Of a stretch of DNA of 64,000 nucleotides, positions 1-36,570 are shown in pieces. The first letter of the stretch is position 1. Every line of letters starts with the position of its first letter. The notes beneath the pieces are model-generated. The model was not told the origin of the DNA. It made no database searches and saw only the letters and a program-made list of their open reading frames with translations. Source of the DNA: Escherichia coli (lineage in GTDB: Bacteria > Pseudomonadota > Gammaproteobacteria > Enterobacterales > Enterobacteriaceae); the NCBI RefSeq assembly GCF_003018235.1, contig NZ_CP027439.1, one strand, 5' to 3'. The translations under genes were made by a program, and so were the position numbers.

Positions 1-1269
1 CGCCTGTATGCCGCGTCACGTCTTGACCCGGAGACGTATAAGAAAGTCCATGATGCCGGTTTCCGCTGGGCACCAAAACAGGCGCTGTTTGTCGCGCCAG
101 CTTGGACACCGGGCCGGGAAGATGTGCTCCTCTCACTTGCCGGAGAGATTGAGGATGAAGACAGCACACTCGCTGAACGTCAGGAAGCACGGGCGGAGCG
201 GTTTACTGGATACAGCGGAAAGCGGGCCAGTGAATCCGCACAGGCACTTGATGAAGTGGAAAGACTGGCCGCGATGATCCCGCCCGGTCAGCCCATTCTT
301 GTGGGGCATCACAGCGAACGCCGCGCCCGTCGTGATGCGCAGCGTATTGAAAACGGCATGAAACGTGCTGTGATGCTCTTTGAACGTGCAGAATACTGGG
401 AAGAGCGGGCGCGCTCGGCACTGCTTCACGCGAAGTATAAAGAACGTCCGGACGTTCGCTGGCGTCGTATCAAAAAAATCGAAGCTGATTTGCGCAAGTC
501 TGAAAAGACCATCGCGCAGTCGCAGAAATATCTGACGATGTGGCGGGCTGAATCGCTGGATCTGAATATGGCAAAACTCATCAGCAGTCATGACCATATC
601 AGCGCCTGTTTCCCGCTGGATACGTATCCGCGCCCGGCAGAAAAAAGCCAGTATGAAGGAAGTCGCTCGTTATGGTCGGCCCTGGATGATGACATCATCA
701 CCACGGAGCAGGCCCGTGAAATTGCGATCCGCTGTCATGAACGGCAGATTCAGCGTCAGCAACGCTGGGTTAACCACTATCAGAACCGCCTGATCTATGA
801 GCGTGCCATGCTGGACGAAAGCGGCGGCGTGGTTACCCGGACACAGGATTTTGAGCCGGGCGGACAGGTTTTCAGCCGGGGTGAGTGGCTGACCATCATC
901 CGCGTGAACAAAAGCAACGGGGCGGTGAGTTCAGTCACAACGCCAAATTACAGTTTTCTCGGGTACAGCGGCACGATGAAAGTGACGCCCGATCGCATCA
1001 CGGACTACAAAGCACCATCGGCAGAAGAGGCTGCCGTCGCCAGCCAGGCCGCGAAGCGTCCGCCGGTAGTCAACTATCCGGGGGAAGGTTTCCGGGAAAT
1101 GACAAAGGCACAGTGGGCCGCCCTGCCCCGGGACTGTAAGGCCGTGCGCAGTGTGGCAGAAGCAGAAGACCACGGGGCATACCGCTACCGCCGCACAATG
1201 GACAATAATTTCCGTCTGGTGAATGTGTATATCACCGACATGAAAATTACGGAAATCCCACAGAAATAA
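1..1269 (+). CDS. Leading-region protein of unknown function, 5' end lies outside the window
   Basis: Reading frame is open from window position 1 with no upstream stop; the listed 381-aa ORF 124..1269 is its C-terminal part. Sits upstream of the methyltransferase and ssb, as in F-like leading regions. Confidence 0.55.
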   Translation, partial: RLYAASRLDPETYKKVHDAGFRWAPKQALFVAPAWTPGREDVLLSLAGEIEDEDSTLAERQEARAERFTGYSGKRASESAQALDEVERLAAMIPPGQPILVGHHSERRARRDAQRIENGMKRAVMLFERAEYWEERARSALLHAKYKERPDVRWRRIKKIEADLRKSEKTIAQSQKYLTMWRAESLDLNMAKLISSHDHISACFPLDTYPRPAEKSQYEGSRSLWSALDDDIITTEQAREIAIRCHERQIQRQQRWVNHYQNRLIYERAMLDESGGVVTRTQDFEPGGQVFSRGEWLTIIRVNKSNGAVSSVTTPNYSFLGYSGTMKVTPDRITDYKAPSAEEAAVASQAAKRPPVVNYPGEGFREMTKAQWAALPRDCKAVRSVAEAEDHGAYRYRRTMDNNFRLVNVYITDMKITEIPQK

Positions 1270-1315
1270 GGTATATCCCCCCGGGAAATCCCCGGGGGAT
1301 GACGGAGATAATGAC

Positions 1316-1879
1316 ATGCACAGTCAGTTAAAAGAACGTATCCGGCTGATGCGCGCAAGGCTGGATAACGCCGCGCCGGTTGCTGAAATCCGGGCTGAAT
1401 CTCAGCTTTTTGTGACTCCTGCCCCGGTCTGTGATCGCCTGGTGACGCTGGCGGAGATCAGCAACCGTGATCACATTCTGGAACCCTCTGCCGGCACCGG
1501 GGCCATACTGCGGGCGATTCGGGATACCGCGCCGGGGGCCATGTGTGATGCGGTGGAAATCAACAGCGGGCTGGTCCGGTATCTGCGGGAAAATTTTAAC
1601 GGTGTCAGGGTTCAGTGTGGCGACTTCATGGAATGGCAGCCGGTGCAGTATTACAGCCGGGTTATCATGAATCCGCCGTTCAGCCACGGGCAGGATATCC
1701 GGCATATCCTGCGGGCCTTTTCCCTGTTGCGTCCGGGTGGCGTGCTGGTTGCCGTCTGTCTGAACGGGCCGCGCCAGCAGGAGAAGCTGTTACCGTTTTC
1801 TGACGTCCGCGAGGAGCTGCCACGCGGCACGTTTGCTTATACCGATGTTCCGACGATGATTATTCGTCTGCGTGCCTGA
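1316..1879 (+). CDS. Orphan DNA methyltransferase (N6-adenine type)
   Basis: 187-aa ORF with AdoMet-binding motif EPSAGTGA and catalytic NPPF motif; no adjacent restriction endonuclease gene. Confidence 0.75.
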   Translation: MHSQLKERIRLMRARLDNAAPVAEIRAESQLFVTPAPVCDRLVTLAEISNRDHILEPSAGTGAILRAIRDTAPGAMCDAVEINSGLVRYLRENFNGVRVQCGDFMEWQPVQYYSRVIMNPPFSHGQDIRHILRAFSLLRPGGVLVAVCLNGPRQQEKLLPFSDVREELPRGTFAYTDVPTMIIRLRA

Positions 1880-2060
1880 TGACTCCGGGCAGGCGGGAGG
1901 ACAAATGCCCGTCTGCCCGCGCCGGGAAAAGACCGCGCGCCGGTGGCGCTGAAAGGGGCCGCGCTCACGCGCCGCCCCTTACATTACGCGGACATTCTGC
2001 TGTGGGCTTCTGTCTTTTCAGACCTGTCATTTGTCTGTTACTGATGATGTTGTTGTTCCT

Positions 2061-2108
2061 GCTACTGCTACTGCTACTGCTACTGCTACTGCTACTGCTA
2101 CTGCTACT
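2061..2108. repeat. Hexanucleotide microsatellite (GCTACT)x8
   Basis: Eight perfect tandem copies read directly from the sequence; preceded by TGATGA/TGTTGT triplet repeats. Confidence 0.9.
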
Positions 2109-2109
2109 G

Positions 2110-2700
2110 TTCTTCTTTTTTCTGCTGTTCTGATTACTGCCTGTTTTGTTGTTCTCCTGCTTATGCCTTTTCCGGGCGTCCCCCTGGCGGGGCGGGCTGT
2201 CGTGAACGGAGCCAGCGAAGCTGTCTCCGCCCTGGCGGGCTTCCATCCCTGACGCGAAACCCCGGGCTTGCAGCGACCGTTCCGGTCGCGCCGCCTCTGT
2301 CGCGCCGTGGCCTGCGCTCCCGGCATCCCGGCAAAAGGCCGCCGGGATGTAAGGGGCAACGCCGTTTCGCAAACCGCGCTTCACGTCGTTGCGGCGGGTC
2401 CCTGTCCGTTGTTGTGTCCGGTGCCATTCACCTGTTTAAGCCCCTGTCGCCGGGGGCTGATACAGCCACAACCGTCTCCGCCAGTCCAGGGGTGAAATGT
2501 ACATCCCGCAAAACTTTTTGCCCAAAAGCAGGCAAAAACTTTTGCGGTCTGCCCCCGGACAGTCGTTTCCGGCCGTGGCAGTGATGCCCCTTGCGGCGAA
2601 GGTTCTCAAAAAGGTGATGGTGAATACCGGAGGGAACAAAAGGCAGGTCCCCGCAAAACGTCAAAACCGCGGCTCCCGAAACTCAAAAGATGATGGGGGC
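2110..2700 (+). promoter_or_regulatory. Frpo/ssi-like structured repeat, copy A (candidate single-strand promoter) upstream of ssb
   Basis: About 600 bp of GC-rich, hairpin-dense non-coding DNA ending just before the ssb RBS; paralogous to 7480..8125. Contains hairpin 2506..2547 (ccgcaaaactttttgcc/ggcaaaaacttttgcgg). Confidence 0.5.
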
Positions 2701-2728
2701 TGAAAACATCAACAGAAGGAGGCACATC

Positions 2729-3558
<830 letters not shown>

Positions 3559-3621
3559 GAGAGGTGCCGGACGGGAACGCGTCCGGCAGACATACAACCA
3601 TCCCGGTCAAAGGAGAAATAT

Positions 3622-5580
3622 ATGTCAGTTACAGAGTCTAAGACAAAAACGGAGCGTAAATCCAGCCGTAAACCTGCAAAAACGCAGGAAACAGTCCTGT
3701 CTGCCCTGCTGGCGCAGACGGAGGAAGTGAGCGTGCCGCTGGCCTCACTGATTAAATCACCGCTGAATGTGCGCACGGTGCCGTATTCTGCGGAGTCCGT
3801 CAGCGAACTGGCGGACTCCATTAAAGGCGTCGGCCTGTTACAGAATCTGGTTGTTCATGCCCTGCCAGGTGACCGTTACGGTGTCGCCGCAGGTGGTCGC
3901 CGACTGGCTGCACTCAACATGCTGGCAGAGCGTGGCATCATTCCGGCTGACTGGCCTGTCCGTGTGAAGGTCATTCCGCAGGAGCTGGCGACGGCGGCAT
4001 CAATGACTGAAAACGGTCATCGTCGGGATATGCACCCTGCTGAACAGATTGCCGGATTCCGCGCAATGGCGCAGGAAGGCAAAACACCTGCACAAATCGG
4101 TGATTTGCTGGGCTATTCACCCCGCCATGTCCAGCGAATGCTGAAACTGGCAGATCTTGCGCCTGTCATCCTCGATGCGCTGGCAGAAGACCGCATCACC
4201 ACCGAACACTGTCAGGCGCTGGCACTGGAGAACGACACCGCGCGTCAGGTGCAGGTGTTTGAAGCCGCCTGCCAGTCAGGATGGGGTGGAAAACCGGAAG
4301 TGCAGACCATTCGTCGTCTGGTGACCGAAAGTGAAGTGGCGGTGGCGGGGAACAGTAAATTCCGCTTCGTGGGGGCTGATGCCTTCTCGCCAGATGAACT
4401 GCGCACCGATTTGTTCAGCGACGACGAGGGTGGCTATGTGGACTGTGTTGCGCTCGATGTCGCCCTGCTGGAAAAACTCCAGGCTGTCGCAGAGTTCCTT
4501 CGGGAAGCCGAAGGCTGGGAATGGTGCGCCGGACGTATGGAGCCTGTTGGTGAGTGCCGTGAGGATGCCGGAACATACCGCTGTCTGCCGGAGCCGGAAG
4601 CGGTGCTGACGGAGGCGGAAGAAGAACGCCTGAACGAACTGATGGCACGTTACGACGCGCCGGAAAACCAGAGTGAGGAATCCGACCTGCTGGAAGCCGA
4701 AATGAAGCTGATGCGCTGCATGGCGAAGGTCAGGGCGTGGACGCCGGAGATGCGTGCCGGAAGTGGCGTGGTGGTGTCCTGGCGTTATGGCAACGTGTGT
4801 GTCCAGCGTGGTGTGCAGTTGCGCAGTGAGGATGATGTGGCTGATAACGATTACCGCACGGAACAGGTGCAGGAGAAAGCCTCAGTGGAGGAAATCAGTC
4901 TGCCGCTGCTGACGAAAATGTCCTCAGAGCGCACGCTGGCAGTCCAGGCGGCACTGATGCAGCAATCAGACAAATCCCTGGCACTTCTGGCATGGACACT
5001 CTGTCTGAATGTATTTGGCAGTGGAGCGTACAGCAATCCCGCCAGAATCCGCCTGGAATGTGAGCATTATTCGCTGACCAGCGATGCGCCGTCAGGGAAG
5101 GAAGGTGCCGCATTCATGGCGATGATGGCAGAAAAAGCCCGTCTTGCCGCCCTGCTGCCGGATGGATGGGCACGGGATATGACGACGTTCCTGTCACTCA
5201 GTCAGGAGGTGCTGTTATCACTGCTCAGTTTCTGCACCGCGTGCAGTATCCACGGTGTCCAGACCCGTGAGTATGGTCACACGTCACGCAGTCCGCTGGA
5301 TTCGCTGGAAAGCGCCATCGGCTTTCACATGCGCGACTGGTGGCAGCCGACAAAAGCAAACTTCTTCGGACACCTGAAAAAGCCGCAGATTATCGCAGCC
5401 CTGAATGAGGCAGGACTGTCCGGTGCTGCACGGGACGCGGAGAAGATGAAGAAAGGCGATGCGGCTGAACATGCAGAGTTCCACATGAAAGACAACCGCT
5501 GGGTGCCTGGCTGGATGTGTGCACCACGCCCACAGACGGATGCCACTGAACGCACCGATAACCTGGCTGATGCCGCCTGA
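3622..5580 (+). CDS. ParB-like nuclease-domain protein (leading region)
   Basis: 652-aa ORF whose N-terminal region has a ParB/Srx-like fold signature (LLQNLVVHALPGDRYGVAAGGRRLAALNM); RBS AAGGAG upstream. Confidence 0.7.
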   Translation: MSVTESKTKTERKSSRKPAKTQETVLSALLAQTEEVSVPLASLIKSPLNVRTVPYSAESVSELADSIKGVGLLQNLVVHALPGDRYGVAAGGRRLAALNMLAERGIIPADWPVRVKVIPQELATAASMTENGHRRDMHPAEQIAGFRAMAQEGKTPAQIGDLLGYSPRHVQRMLKLADLAPVILDALAEDRITTEHCQALALENDTARQVQVFEAACQSGWGGKPEVQTIRRLVTESEVAVAGNSKFRFVGADAFSPDELRTDLFSDDEGGYVDCVALDVALLEKLQAVAEFLREAEGWEWCAGRMEPVGECREDAGTYRCLPEPEAVLTEAEEERLNELMARYDAPENQSEESDLLEAEMKLMRCMAKVRAWTPEMRAGSGVVVSWRYGNVCVQRGVQLRSEDDVADNDYRTEQVQEKASVEEISLPLLTKMSSERTLAVQAALMQQSDKSLALLAWTLCLNVFGSGAYSNPARIRLECEHYSLTSDAPSGKEGAAFMAMMAEKARLAALLPDGWARDMTTFLSLSQEVLLSLLSFCTACSIHGVQTREYGHTSRSPLDSLESAIGFHMRDWWQPTKANFFGHLKKPQIIAALNEAGLSGAARDAEKMKKGDAAEHAEFHMKDNRWVPGWMCAPRPQTDATERTDNLADAA

Positions 5581-5634
5581 TGAACAACCACACCGCCCCG
5601 CCGGAGACGGGGCGGCAGCAAGGGAGATACCGTG

Positions 5635-6069
5635 ATGAAAACTGAACTGACCCTGAATGTATTACAGACCATGAACGCACAGGAATATGAAGATATCCGG
5701 GCTGCCGGAAGTGATGAACGCCGTGAGCTGACTCACGCCGTGATGCGGGAGCTGGATGCGCCGGATAACTGGACGATGAACGGCGAGTACGGCAGCGAGT
5801 TTGGCGGCTTTTTCCCCGTCCAGGTCCGTTTCACGCCTGCCCACGAACGTTTTCACCTGGCGTTATGTTCACCGGGCGATGTCTCTCAGGTCTGGGTGCT
5901 GGTTCTGGTGAATGCCGGTGGTGAGCCGTTTGCGGTGGTTCAGGTACAGCGGCGGTTTGCACCGGAAGCCGTCAGCCATTCACTGGCACTGGCGGCGTCA
6001 CTGGATACGCAGGGGTACAGCGTTAACGACATCATCCATATCCTGATGGCGGAAGGAGGTCAGGTATGA
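5635..6069 (+). CDS. psiB: Plasmid SOS inhibition protein B
   Basis: 144-aa product starting [25 protein letters not shown], matching PsiB in length and sequence. Confidence 0.9.
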
Positions 6070-6785
6070 GCGTACGTTCACAGGCACTGGTTCCCCTCAG
6101 CACAGAGCAACAGGCCGCATGGCGGGCGGTGGCGGAGACAGAAAAACGCCGCCATCAGGGTAACACGCTGGCGGAATATCCGTATGCGGGGGCGTTTTTC
6201 CGCTGTCTGAACGGAAGCCGCAGGATATCGCTGTCTGACCTGCGATTTTTCATGCCGTCCCTGACCGCAGAAGAACTGCACGGCAACCGTCTTCAGTGGC
6301 TGTATGCAGTCGATGTGCTGATTGAAACACAGGGCGAGGTCTGCCTCCTTCCCCTTCCCGGTGATGCAGCAGAGCGGTTGTTTCCGTCGGTGCGGTTTCG
6401 TGTCAGGGAGCGCAGTCGCCATAAATCCGCGCTGGTCATGCAGAAGTACAGCCGCCAGCAGGCACGGGAGGCAGAGCAGAAAGCCCGTGCGTACCAGGCG
6501 CTGGTCGCTCAGGCTGAAATCGAACTGGCATTCCATTCGCCGGAAACAGTCGGAAGCTGGCATGCACGCTGGAGTGACCGGGTGGCAGAGCATGACCTGG
6601 AAACCCTGTTCTGGCAGTGGGGCGAGCGTTTTCCGTCACTGGCCGGAATGGAACGCTGGCAGTGGCAGGATATGCCGTTCTGGCAGGTTATTGCGGAAGC
6701 CAGTCTTGCAGCAAGAGAGGCCGGTCACGCTGTCCGTGAGATGGAGCGGTGGATGGTGCCGAACAAACTCCGGGAGGCTGCGTGA
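6066..6785 (+). CDS. psiA: Plasmid SOS inhibition protein A
   Basis: 239 aa, start overlaps the psiB stop (ATGA); conserved psiB-psiA operon arrangement. Confidence 0.85.
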
Positions 6786-6929
6786 TGCGGCAACAATCAC
6801 ACAGATTACCCGTAAACAGCCTGAATGAGCGGGTTATTTTCAGGAAAAGTGAGTGTGGTCAGCGTGCAGGGATATGGGCTATGATGTGCCCGGCGCTTGA
6901 GGCTTTCTGCCTCATGACGTGAAGGTGGT

Positions 6930-7010
6930 TTGTTGCCGTGTTGTGTGGCAGAAAGAAGATAGCCCCGTAGTAAGTTAATTTTCATTAACCACCACGAGGC
7001 ATCCCTATGT
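6930..7010 (-). ncRNA. sok: Sok/FlmB-like antisense RNA of the hok-type killer locus (approximate position)
   Basis: Placed from the hok/sok paradigm: antisense to the leader and mok start upstream of hok. No promoter or ends were mapped. Confidence 0.3.
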
Positions 7011-7219
7011 CTAGTCCACATCAGGATAGCCTCTTACCGCGCTTTGCGCAAGGAGAAGAAGGCCATGAAACTACCACGAAGTTCCCTTGTCTGGTGTGTG
7101 TTGATCGTGTGTCTCACACTGTTGATATTCACTTATCTGACACGAAAATCGCTGTGCGAGATTCGTTACAGAGACGGACACAGGGAGGTGGCGGCTTTCA
7201 TGGCTTACGAATCCGGTAA
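7007..7219 (+). CDS. mok: Mok/FlmC-like overlapping reading frame (modulation of killing)
   Basis: 70-aa ORF overlapping hok in a different frame, as in hok/sok and flm loci. Confidence 0.6.
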
Positions 7220-7223
7220 GTAG
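7065..7223 (+). CDS. hok: Hok/FlmA-family type I toxin
   Basis: 52-aa peptide [52 protein letters not shown], typical Hok/Gef family; followed by GC-rich hairpins (fbi/terminator-like) at 7225..7330. Confidence 0.88.
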
Positions 7224-7479
7224 CAACCTGGAGGCGGGCGCAGGCCCGCCTTTTCAGGACTGATGCTGGTCTGACTACTGAAGCGCCTTTATAAAGGGGC
7301 TGCTGGTTCGCTGGTAGCCCCTTTCTCCTTGCTGATGTTGTACGGGCATGAACAACCTGACTTCAGGAAGATCGTTTCCCTTCAGGAACGGGGATGAACG
7401 CGCGCCTGCGGCGCCCGTTCTTTTCCCCCGCCTTCTCTGGTTATGGCCTGTCAGAAATCACATCACCTTCCCTGTGATT

Positions 7480-8125
7480 ATTCTCTTTTTCTTCCTGCTC
7501 TGATTCTGACTACTGCAGTGTTGTCCTGTCTGCTAGGCGCACCTTCGGCTCCCGGCTGCCTGGCGGCATCCGGTCGTCAGGCCCGACTCCGACAGGCAGC
7601 TGCTGGCGCACCTGCCAGTCTCCGCCGAACCCGCTGGCGCGGTTTCGGGCTGTCGCTACGGTCCGATGCGTGAAAACCACAGGCTTGCAGCGACCGTTCC
7701 GGTCGCGCCGCCTCTGTCGCGCCGTAGCCTGCGCTCCCGGCATCCCGGCAAAAGGCCGCCGGGATGTAAGGGGCAACGCCGTTTCGCAAACCGCGCTTCA
7801 CGTCGTTGCGGCGGGTCCCTGCCCGTTGTTGTGTCCGGTGCCATTCACCTGTTTAAGCCCCTGTCGCCGGGGGCTGATACAGCCACAACCTGCCGCACTG
7901 ACTGTCCAGGGTAAATGAACAGCCCACAAAATTTTTTACCCAAAACCCGGTAAAAAATTTTGCGTTCTGCCCAGGACAGGTGCGTCAGGCCGTGGCAGTG
8001 ATGCCCCTTGCGGCGAAGGTTCTCAAACAGGTGATGGTTAATACCGGAGGGAACAAAAGGCAGGTCCCCGCAAAACGTCAAAACCGCGGCTCCCGAAACT
8101 CAACAGATGATGGGGGCTGAAAACC
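7480..8125 (+). promoter_or_regulatory. Frpo/ssi-like structured repeat, copy B, upstream of the orf95-like gene
   Basis: Paralogue of 2110..2700 with long identical blocks (7683..7897, 7985..8125). Hairpin 7925..7964 (cacaaaattttttacc/ggtaaaaaattttgcg) carries compensatory changes relative to copy A. Confidence 0.5.
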
Positions 8126-8137
8126 AGAGAAAGCAGG

Positions 8138-8425
8138 ATGAGTACCCGAAATATCCACGTTAACACCGCGTCGTACACGCTTCTTGTTGCCGGGAAGAAA
8201 AAAAACACCGGGGAAGAGTGGGACGTCCTGGAATTCAGCAGCCTGACTGAGCTGAAAAAATATCGCAAAAGCCACCCGGAAAAGATGGCCTTCAGCTATA
8301 GCTACGCGCTCAGCCAGGGTGTGGATACGCAGTTCCGCCATATCAACATTGCGGAAGCTGATCACTTCAAACAGTTCCTGCGTCAGATTAAGCGTGCCGG
8401 CCTCGATATCCGGGCGATCTGCTGA
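8138..8425 (+). CDS. Leading-region protein, orf95-like
   Basis: 95-aa ORF directly downstream of Frpo-like copy B. Confidence 0.6.
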   Translation: MSTRNIHVNTASYTLLVAGKKKNTGEEWDVLEFSSLTELKKYRKSHPEKMAFSYSYALSQGVDTQFRHINIAEADHFKQFLRQIKRAGLDIRAIC

Positions 8426-8542
8426 CCGGATGTGATGAATATCCCTCCTGATTGTTGCAATGTTGTTAATGGAGAACGGGGGGATGATATTAAGCGGAAA
8501 AATTTTTTATTAAATTTATTCTTTCATAAAGGAGTAGCTGTT

Positions 8543-9364
8543 ATGCGATTAGCTTCCCGTTTTGGTCGGTATAATTCCATCCGCCGTGAACGTCCTTTAA
8601 CGGATGATGAATTAATGCAGTTCGTGCCTTCGGTATTTTCCGGTGATAAACATGAGTCCCGGAGTGAACGTTATACGTATATTCCAACAATCAATATCAT
8701 CAATAAGTTACGTGATGAAGGTTTCCAGCCATTCTTTGCCTGTCAGAGTCGGGTTCGTGATTTGGGGCGTCGGGAATACAGTAAATATATGTTACGTCTT
8801 CGTAGGGAAGGGCATATTAACGGGCAGGAAGTTCCTGAAATTATCCTGCTTAATTCACATGATGGTTCATCCAGTTATCAGATGATCCCGGGAATTTTTC
8901 GTTTTGTCTGCACAAATGGCCTGGTGTGCGGAAATAATTTTGGCGAAATCCGCGTTCCACATAAAGGTGATATTGTCGGGCAGGTTATCGAGGGAGCGTA
9001 TGAAGTGCTCGGTGTCTTTGATAAGGTCACTGATAATATGGAGGCAATGAAAGAAATTCATCTTAACAGTGACGAGCAACATTTATTTGGCAGAGCTGCC
9101 CTGATGGTCAGGTATGAAGATGAAAATAAAACGCCGGTGACGCCTGAACAGATAATTACTCCCCGTCGTCGGGAGGATAAACAGAACGATCTCTGGACAA
9201 CCTGGCAGCGGGTTCAGGAGAATATGATAAAAGGTGGATTATCGGGGCGAAGTGCCTCCGGGAAAAATACCAGGACAAGAGCCATTACAGGTATTGATGG
9301 TGATATAAGAATCAACAAAGCATTATGGATGATTGCCGAACAGTTCAGGGAGTGGAAGTCATGA
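8543..9364 (+). CDS. Leading-region protein, orf273-like (DUF932-type)
   Basis: 273-aa product from internal start MRLASRFGRY; size and position match the F-like orf273. Confidence 0.6.
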   Translation: MRLASRFGRYNSIRRERPLTDDELMQFVPSVFSGDKHESRSERYTYIPTINIINKLRDEGFQPFFACQSRVRDLGRREYSKYMLRLRREGHINGQEVPEIILLNSHDGSSSYQMIPGIFRFVCTNGLVCGNNFGEIRVPHKGDIVGQVIEGAYEVLGVFDKVTDNMEAMKEIHLNSDEQHLFGRAALMVRYEDENKTPVTPEQIITPRRREDKQNDLWTTWQRVQENMIKGGLSGRSASGKNTRTRAITGIDGDIRINKALWMIAEQFREWKS

Positions 9365-9660
9365 TAATATAAGTAAAGCCCCGAAAAATTTTTCGGGGCT
9401 TTACTTATATTATCATCCTGCGGCATTGCTATGTCGTCTGATATGCCTCAATTTCATCAACTGGCTTTTCGGTAGTATGTAAATATTGTGCCCGCGAAAA
9501 ATGGTCTGGCAGGAGGCTGCGCAGTTACCGGATATATATAAGATGGGTTCCCGCTTTGCGGGGCTTCGGCCAGTCAGTATTGTCACTCATATGATATTTT
9601 TGTGTGTGGCCTTCCATGCCGCTTTTGCGGCATAACCGATATCTGACAATGTCTGTAAGA

Positions 9661-10170
9661 TTAATTGTTCTGCACGCTGTTAATTTCCGGAAGTGATTTC
9701 TTCGTGGTCGGAACCTGGATGCCTTTACTGCTCTTTATCCCGGTATAAATCCGGTAAACCTCTGATGCGTAGGCAAGACGTCTCTGGTTCTGGCGTTCGG
9801 TCTTCCTGAATCCAGCATTGTATGCACCAACGGCCTCCCAGGAGACGCCCCATTTTTTAAAGGCTATTGCCAGATAATAAGCACCGGTATAAATGTTCAT
9901 GCAGGGATCTGTTGTCAGATGTTCCGGCTTAATTCCATAGCGGGCCAGTTCGTTAAAATGCTGGGAATCTACCTGCATCAGTCCGCTGCCATATCCCGTT
10001 ACCGGATTAATACCGATGGCATTAACCCGGTAACGGGATTCTTTCCATGATATTGCTCTCAGTAAATCAGGATCTATTTTGTAATCCCGGCCTGCAAGAT
10101 CAAAGCAATCAGTGGCATGGCAGATCTCATTTATAAACATCAGGCAGATGGCTAACATCCATTTTTTCAT
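9661..10170 (-). CDS. Lytic transglycosylase (orf169 / gene 19 family, VirB1-like)
   Basis: 169 aa with signal peptide [12 protein letters not shown] and transglycosylase motifs ([24 protein letters not shown]); RBS AGGTGG. Confidence 0.85.
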
Positions 10171-10239
10171 TTTTCCACCTCTGGTGACTTTATCCGTAAA
10201 TAATTTAACCCACTCCACAAAAAGGCTCAACAGGTTGGT

Positions 10240-10535
10240 GGTTCTCACCACCAAAAGCACCACACCCCACGCAAAAACAAGTTTTTGCTGATTTTTCTTT
10301 ATAAATAGAGAGTTATGAAAAATTAGTTTCTCTTACTCTCTTTATGATATTTAAAAAAGCGGTGGTACTGACTATTTTTATAAAAAACATTATTTTATAT
10401 TAGGGGCGCTGCTAGCGGCGCGGTGTGTTTTTTTATAGGATAACGCCAGGGGCGCTGCTAGCGGTGCGTCCCTGTTTGCATTATGAATTTTAGTGTTTCG
10501 AAATTAACTTTATTTTATGTTCAAAAAAGGTAATC
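10240..10535. other. oriT: nic region, inverted repeats and direct repeats consistent with TraM binding sites
   Basis: Minus strand reads GGTGGTGAGAACCACC...TTTGCGTGGGGTGTGGTGCTTTTGGTGG (F-type nic motif, nick near 10261/10262); direct repeats GGGGCGCTGCTAGCGG at ~10403 and ~10451; AT-rich tracts. Confidence 0.8.
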
Positions 10536-10539
10536 TCTA

Positions 10540-10923
10540 ATGGCTAAGGTGAACCTGTATATCAGCAATGATGCTTATGAAAAAATAAATGCGATTATTG
10601 AGAAGCGTCGACAGGAAGGGGCAAGGGAAAAAGATATCAGTTTTTCAGCAACAGCTTCAATGCTTCTTGAACTGGGGCTTCGTGTACATGAGGCTCAGAT
10701 GGAGCGTAAAGAGTCTGCATTTAATCAGACTGAGTTTAATAAATTGCTTCTTGAATGCGTTGTAAAAACACAATCATCAGTAGCGAAAATTTTGGGTATT
10801 GAGTCTCTCAGTCCTCATGTCTCCGGAAATCCAAAGTTTGAATATGCCAATATGGTTGAAGATATCAGGGAGAAGGTATCATCTGAGATGGAGCGATTTT
10901 TTCCAAAAAATGATGATGAATAA
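10540..10923 (+). CDS. traM: Relaxosome accessory protein TraM
   Basis: 127 aa, MAKVNLYISNDAYEKINAIIEKRRQEGAREKDISFSATASMLLELGLRV. Confidence 0.93.
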   Translation: MAKVNLYISNDAYEKINAIIEKRRQEGAREKDISFSATASMLLELGLRVHEAQMERKESAFNQTEFNKLLLECVVKTQSSVAKILGIESLSPHVSGNPKFEYANMVEDIREKVSSEMERFFPKNDDE

Positions 10924-11039
10924 AAGAAATTTGACTTCGTTCAAATATCAGAGTTTTTATGATTTAAAAGGGTGACAGTACGAAAGATAATTAGTATATT
11001 AATTACGTGGTTAATGCCACGTTAAAATTTGAATTTGAA

Positions 11040-11115
11040 AATCGCCGATGCAGGGAGTTCACGTCTCCCTGCATCGACTGTCCATAGAATCCTTTGTGAG
11101 GAGGTTCCTATGTAT
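11040..11115 (-). ncRNA. finP: FinP-like antisense RNA opposite the traJ leader (approximate)
   Basis: Stem-loop GATGCAGGGAG...CTCCCTGCATC (11047..11075) plus a second stem spanning the traJ RBS and start; position follows the FinOP paradigm. Ends not mapped. Confidence 0.4.
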
Positions 11116-11799
11116 CCGATGGATCGTATTCAACAAAAACATGCTCGTCAAATAGATCTGCTGGAAAATCTGACGGCAGTTATTCAGGATTATCCAAATC
11201 CAGCCTGTATCAGGGACGAAACTGGAAAATTTATTTTTTGCAATACGCTGTTTCATGAGTCATTTCTTACACAAGATCAAAGTGCTGAAAAATGGCTTCT
11301 GTCGCAGAGAGATTTTTGTGAATTGATCTCTGTCACAGAGATGGAAGCATACAGGAATGAGCATACGCATCTTAATCTTGTAGAGGATGTTTTTATTCAG
11401 AACAGATTCTGGACAATATCTATTCAGTCATTTCTTAATGGACACAGAAATATCATTCTGTGGCAATTTTATGATGCTGCTCATGTTCGTCATAAAGACA
11501 GTTATAATCAAAAAACGATTGTCAGTGATGATATCAGAAATATAATCAGAAGAATGAGTGATGATTCTTCTGTATCATCATATGTAAATGATGTCTTTTA
11601 CTTATATAGCACCGGAATCAGTCATAATGCTATAGCAAGAATATTAAACATATCCATCTCCACATCAAAGAAACACGCGTCTCTGATATGCGACTACTTC
11701 TCTGTTTCTAATAAAGATGAGTTAATCATCTTACTCTACAATAAAAAGTTTATTCATTATTTGTACGAGAAGGCTATGTGTATCATAAATACGCGTTAA
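11110..11799 (+). CDS. traJ: Transfer operon activator TraJ
   Basis: 229 aa from ATG at 11110 with RBS GAGGAGG; lies between traM and traY. Confidence 0.8.
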   Translation: MYPMDRIQQKHARQIDLLENLTAVIQDYPNPACIRDETGKFIFCNTLFHESFLTQDQSAEKWLLSQRDFCELISVTEMEAYRNEHTHLNLVEDVFIQNRFWTISIQSFLNGHRNIILWQFYDAAHVRHKDSYNQKTIVSDDIRNIIRRMSDDSSVSSYVNDVFYLYSTGISHNAIARILNISISTSKKHASLICDYFSVSNKDELIILLYNKKFIHYLYEKAMCIINTR

Positions 11800-11891
11800 T
11801 AAAGTGTTAATAAAATATAGACTTTCCGTCTATTTACCTTTTCTGATTATTCTGCAAACATAAGTAGTAACCAGAAGATAAACAGCGGGAG

Positions 11892-12293
11892 GTGTTATTG
11901 AAAAGATTTGGTACACGTTCTGCAACAGGTAAGATGGTAAAACTAAAATTACCTGTAGATGTGGAAAGTCTATTAATTGAGGCAAGTAACAGAAGCGGAA
12001 GAAGTCGATCGTTTGAGGCAGTAATAAGACTTAAAGATCATCTTCACCGCTATCCAAAGTTTAACAGGGCAGGGAATATCTATGGTAAGTCGCTGGTTAA
12101 GTATCTGACAATGCGTCTGGATGATGAAACTAACCAGCTACTTATTGCAGCCAAAAATCGTAGTGGATGGTGTAAAACAGATGAGGCTGCAGACAGAGTT
12201 ATTGATCATTTGATCAAGTTTCCTGATTTTTATAACTCGGAGATATTCAGGGAGGCAGATAAAGAGGAAGATATAACATTTAATACACTCTAG
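11892..12293 (+). CDS. traY: Relaxosome accessory protein TraY (tandem ribbon-helix-helix)
   Basis: LKRFGTRSATGKMVKLKLPVDVESLLIEASNRSGRSRSFEAVIRLKDHL and a second RHH repeat; the true start is probably the TTG at 11898 (GGAGG RBS). Confidence 0.8.
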   Translation: MLLKRFGTRSATGKMVKLKLPVDVESLLIEASNRSGRSRSFEAVIRLKDHLHRYPKFNRAGNIYGKSLVKYLTMRLDDETNQLLIAAKNRSGWCKTDEAADRVIDHLIKFPDFYNSEIFREADKEEDITFNTL

Positions 12294-12325
12294 TTTTATT
12301 CATTTATCCGAAATTGAGGTAACTT

Positions 12326-12685
12326 ATGAATGCTGTTTTAAGTGTTCAGGGTGCTTCTGCGCCCGTCAAAAAGAAGTCGTTTTTTTCTAAATTCACTCGT
12401 CTGAATATGCTTCGCCTGGCTCGCGCTGTGATCCCGGCTGCTGTTCTGATGATGTTCTTCCCGCAACTGGCAATGGCAGCACAGGGCCAGGACCTGATGG
12501 CAAGCGGTAACACCACGGTTAAGGCGACCTTCGGTAAGGACTCCAGTGTTGTTAAATGGGTCGTTCTGGCTGAAGTTCTGGTCGGTGCGGTCATGTACAT
12601 GATGACCAAAAACGTCAAGTTCCTGGCCGGTTTTGCCATCATCTCTGTATTTATTGCTGTGGGTATGGCCGTCGTTGGCCTCTGA
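12326..12685 (+). CDS. traA: Propilin TraA
   Basis: 119 aa with a long leader and hydrophobic mature pilin segment ([19 protein letters not shown]). Confidence 0.92.
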
Positions 12686-12699
12686 CAGGAAATAAAACG

Positions 12700-13011
12700 A
12701 TGTCGGGAGACGAGAATAAACTTAAGAAATATCGTTTCCCGGAAACACTGACCAACCAGAGCCGCTGGTTTGGCCTGCCACTGGATGAACTGATCCCCGC
12801 AGCAATCTGTATTGGCTGGGGTATCACAACATCGAAATATCTGTTCGGTATTGGTGCAGCGGTTCTGGTTTATTTCGGGATTAAAAAACTGAAAAAAGGG
12901 CGGGGCAGTTCCTGGTTACGTGACCTGATTTACTGGTATATGCCAACAGCCCTGCTGCGCGGTATTTTTCATAATGTTCCCGATTCGTGTTTCCGGCAGT
13001 GGATTAAATAG
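12700..13011 (+). CDS. traL: Pilus assembly protein TraL
   Basis: Conserved position and sequence ([21 protein letters not shown]). Confidence 0.88.
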
Positions 13012-13032
13012 AACTGATACCAGGATTGTTAT

Positions 13033-13599
13033 ATGGAACACGGTGCCCGTTTAAGTACCAGTCGTGTAATGGCCATCGCCTTTATATTTATGTCAGTGCT
13101 TATTGTTCTCAGCCTCTCTGTTAACGTCATTCAGGGGGTGAATAACTACCGTCTTCAGAATGAGCAACGCACTGCCGTGACGCCAATGGCATTTAATGCC
13201 CCCTTTGCCGTGTCACAGAACAGTGCCGACGCCTCTTATTTACAGCAGATGGCGCTGTCATTTATTGCCCTCCGTCTGAATGTTTCATCAGAAACCGTCG
13301 ATGCCTCACATCAGGCGCTTCTGCAATATATCCGCCCGGGTGCACAGAACCAGATGAAAGTTATTCTGGCTGAAGAAGCGAAGCGTATTAAAAACGATAA
13401 CGTGAACTCAGCCTTTTTCCAGACCAGTGTTCGTGTCTGGCCTCAGTATGGCCGTGTGGAAATTCGTGGTGTGCTTAAAACCTGGATTGGTGATTCAAAA
13501 CCTTTCACTGATATCAAACATTACATCCTTATTCTGAAGCGGGAAAACGGGGTGACCTGGCTGGATAATTTCGGGGAAACAGACGATGAGAAAAAATAA
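13033..13599 (+). CDS. traE: Pilus assembly protein TraE
   Basis: 188 aa, N-terminal transmembrane segment; conserved gene order. Confidence 0.88.
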
Positions 13600-14314
13600 T
13601 ACAGCAATAATATTCGGCGGCCTGTTTTTTTCCTGCAGCGTGATGGCCGGAGCCGGTACGCTGGCACCCACCGTGGTGCCAATGGTGAACGGTGGTCAGG
13701 CCAGTATTGCCATCAGCAATACCAGCCCGAATCTGTTTACCGTTCCCGGTGACCGGATTATCGCCGTGAACAGTCTGGATGGTGCCCTGACCAGTAATGA
13801 GCAGACCGCCTCCGGCGGTGTGGTGGTTGCCACCGTCAACAAAAAGCCCTTTACGTTCATTCTGGAAACAGAACGTGGTCTGAATCTTTCCATTCAGGCC
13901 GTTCCCCGTGAAGGCGCGGGGCGTACCATTCAGCTGGTCAGTGACCTGCGCGGAACCGGAGAAGAAGCCGGTACGTGGGAAACGTCCACGCCTTACGAAT
14001 CCCTGCTTGTGACCATCAGCCAGGCCGTCCGTGGCGGAAAATTACCCGCAGGCTGGTATCAGGTCCCGGTGACAAAGGAAACCCTGCAGGCCCCGGCGGG
14101 GCTGTCTTCAGTGGCAGATGCCGTATGGACGGGGAATCACCTGAAGATGGTCCGCTTTGCCGTGGAAAATAAAACGCTGTCTGCCCTGAATATCCGGGAA
14201 AGTGACTTCTGGCAGCCGGGAACCCGTGCCGTGATGTTCAGCCAGCCTGCCAGCCAGTTACTGGCAGGTGCGCGCATGGATGTGTATGTCATCCGTGACG
14301 GGGAGGGCAACTGA
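13586..14314 (+). CDS. traK: Secretin-like T4SS protein TraK
   Basis: 242 aa, [21 protein letters not shown] signal peptide. Confidence 0.9.
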
Positions 14315-34407: not shown

Positions 34408-36570
34408 ATGAGTTTTAACGCAAAGGATATGACCCAGGGCGGTCAGATTGCGTCCATGCGTATCCGCATGTTCAGCCAGATCGCCAATATCATGCTTTAC
34501 TGCCTGTTTATTTTTTTCTGGATACTCGTTGGTCTGGTTTTATGGGTAAAAATAAGCTGGCAGACGTTTGTGAACGGCTGTATTTACTGGTGGTGTACCA
34601 CGCTGGAAGGCATGCGGGATTTAATCAAGTCCCAGCCGGTCTATGAGATCCAGTATTACGGCAAAACCTTCCGGATGAATGCTGCTCAGGTACTGCATGA
34701 TAAATATATGATCTGGTGCGGAGAGCAGCTATGGTCCGCATTCGTTCTGGCCACAGTTGTGGCACTGGTTATTTGCCTGATTACCTTCTTTGTTGTCTCC
34801 TGGATTCTGGGGCGTCAGGGTAAACAACAGAGCGAAAATGAAGTCACAGGTGGTCGTCAGCTGACAGACAATCCGAAAGACGTTGCCCGGATGCTGAAAA
34901 AAGACGGCAAGGACTCCGATATCCGGATTGGCGACCTGCCGATTATCCGGGATTCTGAAATCCAGAACTTCTGTCTGCACGGCACGGTCGGGGCCGGTAA
35001 GTCGGAAGTTATCCGTCGTCTGGCCAACTACGCCCGTCAGCGCGGTGATATGGTGGTGATTTATGACCGTTCAGGGGAATTTGTTAAAAGTTACTATGAT
35101 CCCTCCATCGATAAGATCCTGAATCCGCTGGATGCCCGCTGTGCCGCCTGGGATTTATGGAAGGAGTGTCTGACACAGCCGGATTTTGATAATACGGCAA
35201 ATACCCTGATCCCGATGGGCACAAAAGAGGACCCGTTCTGGCAGGGTTCAGGACGTACCATTTTTGCGGAAGCGGCGTACCTGATGCGTAATGACCCCAA
35301 CCGCAGCTACAGCAAACTGGTGGACACACTGCTTTCCATCAAAATCGAAAAACTGCGTACCTTCCTGCGTAATTCACCGGCGGCCAACCTGGTGGAAGAG
35401 AAAATTGAGAAAACGGCGATTTCCATCCGTGCTGTGCTGACCAACTACGTGAAAGCCATCCGTTACCTGCAGGGGATTGAGCATAACGGTGAGTCTTTTA
35501 CCATCCGTGACTGGATGCGTGGTGTCCGGGAAGATCAGAAAAACGGCTGGCTGTTTATCTCGTCGAATGCCGACACCCATGCCTCCCTGAAGCCGGTGAT
35601 CTCCATGTGGCTGTCCATTGCCATTCGTGGTCTGCTGGCAATGGGAGAAAACCGTAACCGTCGTGTGTGGTTTTTCTGTGATGAGCTACCCACGTTACAC
35701 AAACTGCCGGACCTGGTGGAGATCCTGCCGGAAGCCCGTAAGTTCGGTGGCTGTTATGTGTTTGGTATCCAGTCCTATGCCCAGCTGGAAGATATCTACG
35801 GTGAGAAAGCGGCTGCCACGCTGTTTGACGTCATGAACACCCGTGCCTTTTTCCGTTCTCCCAGCCATAAGATTGCAGAGTTTGCTGCCGGTGAGATTGG
35901 TGAGAAAGAGCACCTGAAAGCCAGCGAGCAGTACTCCTACGGTGCTGATCCGGTACGTGACGGGGTATCGACCGGTAAGGATATGGAGCGCCAGACGCTG
36001 GTCAGTTATTCCGACATTCAGTCTCTGCCGGATTTGACCTGTTATGTCACCCTGCCCGGACCGTATCCGGCAGTAAAACTCTCACTGAAATATCAGGCAC
36101 GTCCGAAGGTTGCCCCTGAGTTTATTCCGCGTGACATCAACCCGGAAATGGAGAACCGCCTGAGTGCCGTACTTGCCGCAAGGGAAGCAGAAGGTCGTCA
36201 GATGGCCAGCCTCTTCGAACCGGATGTGCCGGAGGTTGTTTCCGGAGAAGACGTGACTCAGGCTGAACAGCCGCAACAGCCGCAACAGCCGGTGTCTCCT
36301 GCCATCAACGATAAGAAGTCAGATTCAGGTGTGAATGTTCCGGCAGGGGGGATCGAGCAGGAGCTGAAAATGAAACCGGAAGAAGAGATGGAACAGCAAC
36401 TGCCACCCGGGATCAGTGAATCCGGTGAAGTGGTGGATATGGCCGCTTATGAGGCATGGCAACAGGAAAATCATCCGGACATCCAGCAGCAGATGCAGCG
36501 TCGTGAAGAGGTGAACATTAATGTGCACCGGGAGCGCGGGGAGGATGTTGAGCCGGGAGATGATTTCTGA
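34408..36570 (+). CDS. traD: Type IV coupling protein TraD
   Basis: 720 aa with Walker A GTVGAGKS and C-terminal QPQQPQQP repeats. Confidence 0.95.

Follow-up and report, generated by a model that had tools for sequence, protein, structure and literature searches.

The question raised by this locus is whether a perfect hexanucleotide array, lying between a methyltransferase gene and a structured promoter element, serves the plasmid that carries it or mainly changes in length. Tandem Repeats Finder identified the array as (CTGCTA)8.5 at positions 2059-2109 of the window (the whole stretch of Escherichia coli DNA that was analyzed, 64 kb in length), with 100% matches, a period of 6, and a score of 102. 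It is the top tandem repeat of the window, and the runner-up scored 52. The longest exact period-6 self-match in the array is 45 bases, and the period-6 run in 200 first-order Markov simulations of 64 kb had a mean of 7.8 and a maximum of 12; the length of the array is far above chance expectation. Two-unit copies of the hexamer were not found outside the array on either strand of the whole 64-kb window. The second-ranked tandem repeat of the window, AACAGCCGC x2.9, is also 100% perfect and is located at 36266-36291. An earlier note on this DNA described (GCTACT)x8 at 2061-2108, which is the same array in the GCTACT register with eight whole units. The note placed it between the methyltransferase stop and the structured promoter region, and this placement is correct: the methyltransferase ORF ends at 1879, and the Frpo-like duplicated element starts at 2257.

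The array is an already known MLVA locus, VNTR-37 (O157-37), a marker used for E. coli O157 fingerprinting in public-health laboratories. It is identified as VNTR-37 because the published primers flank it and because unit size and amplicon size agree. The array and the primer sites are as follows.

2059-2109, no strand assigned: hexanucleotide array (CTGCTA)8.5, which reads (TAGCAG)n on the transferred (minus) strand; VNTR-37/O157-37 (Tandem Repeats Finder, period-6 run test, and primer sites)
1971-1997, plus strand: VNTR-37 forward primer site, exact match (primer from the table in PMC8461963)
2124-2160, minus strand: VNTR-37 reverse primer site, with two mismatches in the window and exact in pO157 loci (primer from PMC8461963)

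The in-silico VNTR-37 amplicon in the window is 190 bp. In four pO157 loci both primers match exactly and the in-silico amplicons are 172-226 bp, and all of these sizes fall inside the published range of 157-274 bp (primers from PMC8461963). VNTR-37 has been described as a 6-bp unit on plasmid pO157, “inside ORF L7083” (PMC3321953, Table 1), and 202 German O157 isolates carried 3-17 repeats in 11 alleles, with a diversity index of 0.82 (PMC3321953). CDC PulseNet includes VNTR-37/O157-37 in its MLVA scheme for E. coli O157 (Keys et al., 2005; Hyytia-Trees et al., 2006, both cited through PMC3321953 and PMC3777172). The array itself therefore adds little new biology, as VNTR-37 has been in use for about 20 years among the eight MLVA markers that PulseNet applies to E. 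coli O157. The earlier note was right about the repeat and its instability and left the well-known typing locus unrecognized.

The locus is polymorphic among related plasmids. Array copy number, read directly, ranged from 1 to 19 units across 22 related sequences. The unit counts given for these similarity-ranked sequences were 1, 2, 2, 2, 3, 3, 4, 5, 5, 6, 6, 8, 8, 8, 9, 10, 10, 13, 14, 17, and 19; the array alleles (23) were taken from similarity-ranked tables, among the matches listed, and are not a random sample. A Klebsiella plasmid (L004; L numbers denote individual related sequences) has eight units, and a Salmonella plasmid (L015) has ten. Four pO157 plasmids, which share a diagnostic ATGCTA as the first unit, have 5, 6, 8, and 14 units, although over 1,880 flanking bases they differ by only 0-1 substitutions. 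The array therefore changes far faster than point substitution accumulates. At BLAST-matched places across the array, lengths vary in 6-base steps. Plasmid pAA of strain 042 has a compound array, (CTGCTC)7(CTGCTA)6, which fits the pattern that would be expected if a variant unit arose and was then expanded as a block by slippage. On serial passage, O157-37 gained a single unit once and lost several units once, which corresponds to about 4.3e-5 per generation for the strains involved (PMC3777172). These passage indels support the length instability proposed in the earlier note, which had described a tract prone to slippage, and the range in the relatives and the pO157 alleles with near-identical flanks point the same way. 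The comparison of repeat number among relatives that the note had suggested was carried out, and the counts differ instead of being identical in all relatives. Thus, the array has the properties of a VNTR: short head-to-tail units, whole-unit differences among close relatives, and published primer flanks and amplicon size.

The locus is widely distributed. The region is matched by at least 5,000 PLSDB plasmids, and a 191-nt query over the array matched 2,253 of 5,426 complete E. coli genomes (1,376 with at least 80% coverage); the locus is also present on Klebsiella, Salmonella, and Shigella plasmids. The marker belongs to the leading region, not to O157, and it could sub-type many F-like resistance and virulence plasmids. 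The largest allele seen among the similarity-ranked relatives has 19 units, and the published fragment sizes correspond to a maximum of about 22; this 19-22-unit ceiling could reflect selection instead of mutational equilibrium. Five matching contigs (L016, L017, L024, L026, and L028) are filed as Oscillibacter, Oscillospiraceae, Acinetobacter idrijaensis, Collinsella, and Chryseobacterium genomes or MAGs. These odd hosts are most likely binning errors or contamination, not true host range.

The window comes from an F-like (IncF) conjugative plasmid, of which it represents the leading and transfer regions. On the plus strand the order is DUF3560 gene, methyltransferase, array-bearing spacer, ssb, DUF905 gene, ParB-like gene, psiB, psiA, and hok/sok, followed by a second structured element, traM, and traJ. 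The ParB-family gene is 1.5 kb downstream of the array. The features that bear on the array are the following.

1316-1879, plus strand: class I SAM-dependent methyltransferase gene, 187 aa, with an NPPF motif; upstream neighbor of the array
1885-1980, no strand assigned: three conserved G+C-rich hairpins directly past the methyltransferase stop (alignment and consensus fold with some compensatory pairs)
2007-2173, plus strand: pyrimidine-rich tract that holds the array, 73% C+T and 10% A
2136-2256, no strand assigned: “arm A,” structured, lying between the tract and the duplicated Frpo core (replaced by “arm B” in other plasmids)
2257-2707, plus strand: Frpo2-type single-stranded-DNA promoter element upstream of ssb, 92% identical to 7674-8124
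2729-3262, plus strand: plasmid ssb, first gene of the operon under the Frpo2-type element
7484-8124, plus strand: second (Frpo1-position) module, 97.5% identical to the element right after the array in pMccB17 (L009)
10253-10270, minus strand: F-type oriT nick-site sequence GTGGGGTGTGGTGCTTTT (sequence match; traJ 5′ UTR and FinP at about 11,000)

The sequence GTGGGGTGTGGTGCTTTT at 10253-10270 (minus strand) is the F-type oriT nick sequence. Its orientation makes the minus strand the transferred strand, and the array enters the recipient about 8.2 kb behind the nick. The segment 2257-2707 is repeated at 7674-8124, 5,417 bp apart. In plasmid F, Frpo1 lies about 5 kb from Frpo2, which is upstream of ssb, and the two share 92% identity (Couturier 2023, PMC9849209); by identity and spacing, the putative pair in the window matches this description. 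A second array beside the other Frpo element was not found, as the homology begins only at 2257/7674. In a search of Rfam with window positions 1-14,000, only sok, the traJ 5′ UTR, and FinP were matched, and no match was found at the array.

The array is located 64-148 nt upstream of the structured Frpo domain, in the tract at 2007-2173 (about 165 nt). Among the pyrimidine-rich segments of the entire window, this tract scores highest. When the transferred strand was folded with DNA parameters, the Frpo hairpin, the arm, and the G+C hairpins were paired, and the tract was essentially open in the minimum-energy structure. Mean pairing probability was 0.32-0.41 in the tract vs. 0.67-0.71 in the flanks. 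The hairpins at 1885-1980 have no clear T-run after any of them on the plus strand, and there is one terminator-like match on the minus strand (1949-1937). Possibilities for these hairpins include a terminator cluster, a single-stranded DNA structure, or a priming site. A 68-aa ORF at 2497-2703 (plus strand) lies wholly within the Frpo hairpin region; RefSeq lists it as “hypothetical protein” in many plasmids and once as a frameshifted “ssb.” It is probably an artefact of the structured non-coding element.

Comparison with distant relatives is useful for separating the spacer from the array. These relatives were located via the methyltransferase protein (61-68% identical) and come from Klebsiella, Raoultella, Citrobacter, Enterobacter, Hafnia, and Entomohabitans. 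Most of them keep the order of stop codon, three G+C hairpins, pyrimidine-rich tract, and Frpo-like element. The hairpins are conserved in nucleotide sequence down to these relatives, with a few compensatory pairs. The distant tracts have no sequence similarity to the tract in the window, and they have no expanded array, with at most two-unit proto-repeats such as CTCTCC x2. Base composition in these tracts is 36% C and 13% G. In the window, a terminator-like hairpin and a C-rich, G-poor tract also lie ahead of the second Frpo module, and this tract has the top C/G ratio of the first 10 kb. The segment (7401-7530) is flanked by the terminator-like hairpin that follows hok and by the second Frpo module. 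With a C/G ratio of 2.7 and 22 YC dimers per 80 nt, it resembles a Rho-loading site. The array-bearing tract has a C/G ratio of 1.5-1.8 and 4-6 YC dimers per 80 nt across the array. A strand-biased unstructured spacer thus seems to accompany Frpo promoters, and on this comparison the hexamer array is a lineage-specific expansion inside the spacer. The spacer could be an unpaired linker that allows independent hairpin folding on the incoming strand, or it could be a Rho-loading tract acting against read-through from the upstream operon. Because YC dimers are so few in it, the array is a poor candidate for the functional part of the spacer.

Three ORFs span the array: an 84-aa ORF on the plus strand (poly-Leu), a 139-aa ORF on the minus strand (poly-Ser), and a 73-aa ORF on the plus strand (Ala-Thr). 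Two of them have counterparts in public records.

1879-2133, plus strand: spurious 84-aa ORF ending in poly-Leu; some records list it as “hypothetical protein”
1965-2384, minus strand: spurious 139-aa poly-Ser ORF; counterpart of pO157 “L7083” and of PGAP “hypothetical protein”/“pilus protein”

The earlier note had dismissed the poly-Leu and poly-Ser ORFs as translation artefacts, and several results agree with this: the ORFs are broken in relatives, have no excess of variable third positions, and match no family. The start codon of the plus-strand ORF is gone in two of 18 close relatives (L007 and L016), and two more have a frameshift (L010 and L015). Variable sites at codon positions 1, 2, and 3 number 10, 9, and 5 in the frame of this ORF vs. 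11, 9, and 24 in the methyltransferase in the same alignment. Pfam and NCBIfam gave no meaningful match for the poly-Leu or poly-Ser ORF, none of the three ORF products was present in a protein collection by exact-sequence look-up, and distant relatives have no overlapping ORF at the methyltransferase stop. The array is non-coding, with neither a conserved ORF nor a purifying codon pattern of the kind expected for a low-complexity protein segment. Annotation of the locus is inconsistent: PGAP calls the minus-strand ORF in pO157, as a “hypothetical protein” and on one occasion as a “pilus protein,” whereas it calls the plus-strand ORF in pMccB17 and pAA and “frameshifted” pseudogenes elsewhere. 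For the minus-strand ORF in L002 (1616-2020) and in L029-L031, some records give the name “pilus protein”; others mark a pseudogene, frameshifted or partial. L7083 is probably this minus-strand ORF, based on the published table and the primer match; the literature places VNTR-37 inside L7083, whereas we read L7083 as spurious. The artefact ORFs (“L7083,” “hypothetical protein,” “pilus protein,” and “frameshifted” pseudogenes) recur throughout RefSeq records.

Frpo modules appear in more than one arrangement beside the array, which adjoins the left edge of the 641-nt Frpo module. In many plasmids homology to the window stops at 2135, 25 nt right of the array, and beyond this point they carry arm B, which is 97.5% identical to the second module of the window (7484-8124). 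The reverse arrangement, with arm A at the Frpo1 position, was also found (L013). Arms A and B are unrelated to each other and lie upstream of Frpo elements (2136-2256 vs. 7511-7673 in the window; 1447-2087 in L009; 1200-1400 in L013). Different plasmids carry arm A or arm B at the ssb (Frpo2) or ygeA-side (Frpo1) position. Since either arm occurs at either position, a module of about 640 nt is exchanged between the two sites. Arm-B plasmids (L009-L012, L015, and L016) have the repeat but lack the reverse-primer site of VNTR-37. Null alleles are therefore expected when standard VNTR-37 primers are applied to arm-B plasmids, and this may explain some nulls outside O157.

Other readings of the array were considered. 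It could encode protein, either as the variable membrane segment of a poly-Leu tail-anchored protein coupled to the methyltransferase via the ATGA at 1879, or as part of the Ser-rich L7083 on the minus strand. Most close relatives retain both the start/stop overlap ATGA and the TGA at 2131-2133, homology in arm-B plasmids stops just past the stop codon of the plus-strand ORF, an NTN codon run extends throughout the tract, and both PGAP and the original pO157 annotation draw ORFs across the array. However, the N-terminal half of the plus-strand ORF consists of the conserved DNA hairpins, the minus-strand ORF continues into the Frpo hairpin, several records mark it as frameshifted, and the period-3 look is explained by short triplet or hexamer repeats (ATGATG, TTGTTGTT, TTCTTC, and CTGCTG). 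With the lost starts, the frameshifts, the codon-position pattern, and the lack of family matches or distant overlapping ORFs, a coding role is highly improbable. The earlier note had also raised the possibility of a recombination hotspot. In this reading, the repeat would drive exchange of Frpo modules between plasmids or between the two Frpo positions. Loss of homology 25 nt from the array, the start of arm B at this breakpoint, and the presence of arm A at the Frpo1 position could be read in this way. However, the breakpoint is outside the array, at the end of a short segment (TTCTTTTT.CTGC..TCTGATT) common to both modules, and the second module has the same boundary without a microsatellite. 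The breakpoint is therefore the edge of a duplicated module and not a sign of repeat-driven exchange. Homologous recombination between the 92%-identical Frpo copies, as discussed by Couturier et al. (PMC9849209), suffices for exchange, and a hotspot caused by the repeat is very unlikely.

Regulatory and binding functions were weighed in the same way. Sigma-70-like promoters were found neither in 1700-2900 nor across the array, and terminator-like matches near the array are short G+C hairpins only. Phase-variable contingency loci would be expected to have a conserved ORF, a unit that shifts the reading frame, or a promoter; here no ORF is conserved, the unit is a multiple of 3, and no sigma-70-like site was found in 1700-2900. 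An expression switch would have no visible mechanism, because there is no promoter over the array and a 6-nt unit is unable to shift the frame. Supporting evidence for a regulatory role of the array was not found: alleles of 1-19 units all persist, and relatives do without the array. The array might instead be a tunable spacer, with unit number determining how far the Frpo2 hairpin is from the upstream hairpins (or from a Rho-loading tract), or how well it is insulated from them. Consistent with this, the array is close to the structured Frpo domain, both Frpo modules come after the 80-nt stretches with the strongest C>G skew in the first 10 kb, and tract composition is kept in several distant relatives. 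Against it, the promoter boxes are inside the hairpin and not in the spacer (PMC9849209), no sigma-70-like site accompanies the array, alleles of 1-19 units all persist in natural plasmids, the few YC dimers across the array (vs. 22 upstream of the other module) make a poor Rho-binding sequence, and distant relatives lack the array. A tunable spacer, under which alleles would differ in early ssb-psiB-psiA expression or in read-through from the methyltransferase operon, is unlikely. A related idea comes from conjugation. Complementary-strand synthesis stalls at the base of another single-stranded-DNA-promoter hairpin in F (bioRxiv 10.64898/2026.01.09.698686), and the array is on the template just ahead of the Frpo2 hairpin base in the direction of complementary-strand synthesis in the recipient. 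Stalling might raise slippage in the tract, or spacer length might tune how long ssb-psiB stays single-stranded and expressed; either effect is quite unlikely. If true, VNTR-37 would be a conjugation-linked heritable dial on plasmid establishment, and the Frpo2-adjacent array is a defined spot for experimental variation of spacer length. Finally, the array could be a protein-binding iteron or a centromere-like array, for example for the ParB-like protein of the leading region or for the adjacent methyltransferase. Arrayed short direct repeats are typical of plasmid partition and replication sites, and a ParB-family gene is nearby. Iterons are conserved in unit sequence and number, but here copy number varies from 1 to 19, no other multi-unit hexamer occurs in the window, distant relatives have the same gene order without the array, and the block-expanded variant unit in pAA of strain 042 fits slippage and not a conserved binding site. 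This function is extremely improbable.

We therefore favor, with a probability of about 85%, the reading that the array is the non-coding hexanucleotide VNTR-37 in an IncF inter-operon spacer, driven by slippage and drifting nearly neutrally as part of an unstructured linker. Whole 6-bp units would be gained and lost by slipped-strand mispairing in replication. To the left of the array are the methyltransferase gene and three predicted G+C hairpins, and to the right is the putative Frpo2-type hairpin promoter, which would drive ssb, psiB, and psiA from the incoming single strand. Because the spacer is pyrimidine-rich on the coding strand, it is purine-rich on the transferred strand and would not pair with itself there. 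An unstructured linker between structured domains would tolerate changes in length, and for this reason the array would drift nearly neutrally. The identity of the locus, its polymorphism, its lack of coding content, and its position are shown by the data; slippage as the mechanism, near-neutral drift, and the linker role are inferences. As a counterpoint, a pyrimidine-rich tract is kept in several distant relatives and a similar tract precedes the second Frpo module. Because composition is retained in this way, the spacer may be functional, and drift of the array may be less than strictly neutral.

Contingency loci of Haemophilus, Neisseria, and Campylobacter are like the array in consisting of short tandem units with high-rate slippage. 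Unlike the array, they are located in reading frames or between -35 and -10 boxes, where they switch genes on and off.

Single-stranded-DNA promoters of the Frpo/ssi class 1 type in F and ColIb-P9 were reportedly described by Masai and Arai in 1997. They are also treated in more recent work (Couturier 2023, PMC9849209; NAR 2025, PMC12672017). Compared with Frpo of F, the array is directly upstream of the Frpo2 homologue, and the two copies have the same identity (92%) as in F and a like spacing (5.4 kb). Unlike Frpo elements, the array lies outside the hairpin and to the left of the 641-nt module, and the predicted fold leaves it unpaired. Neither the second copy nor the distant relatives have it, and other Frpo-type elements do without an array.

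Among typing and comparative studies, the MLVA papers (PMC3321953, PMC8461963, PMC3777172) make no mention of the Frpo2 promoter or of a link to the leading region. Two near-identical pAA plasmids, from E. coli 55989 and ON2010, differ by an intergenic (GTAGCA)4 vs. (GTAGCA)3 (PMC3320906, Table 2); this difference was mapped onto the array locus, and 55989p has the locus at those coordinates. This is the same locus and the same hexamer read from the opposite strand, listed as one of eight differences and left uncommented in PMC3320906; in 55989p the array is followed by arm B. The window is distinct from pO157: its array begins with a CTGCTA unit (ATGCTA in pO157) and its reverse-primer site differs as listed above, and its closest record is the IncFIA/FIC plasmid of a pig isolate, vs. 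pO157 for the published VNTR-37. The array in the window and VNTR-37 are nevertheless alike in their 6-bp unit, primer sites, whole-unit mutation, and overlapping ranges (3-17 units published and 1-19 here).
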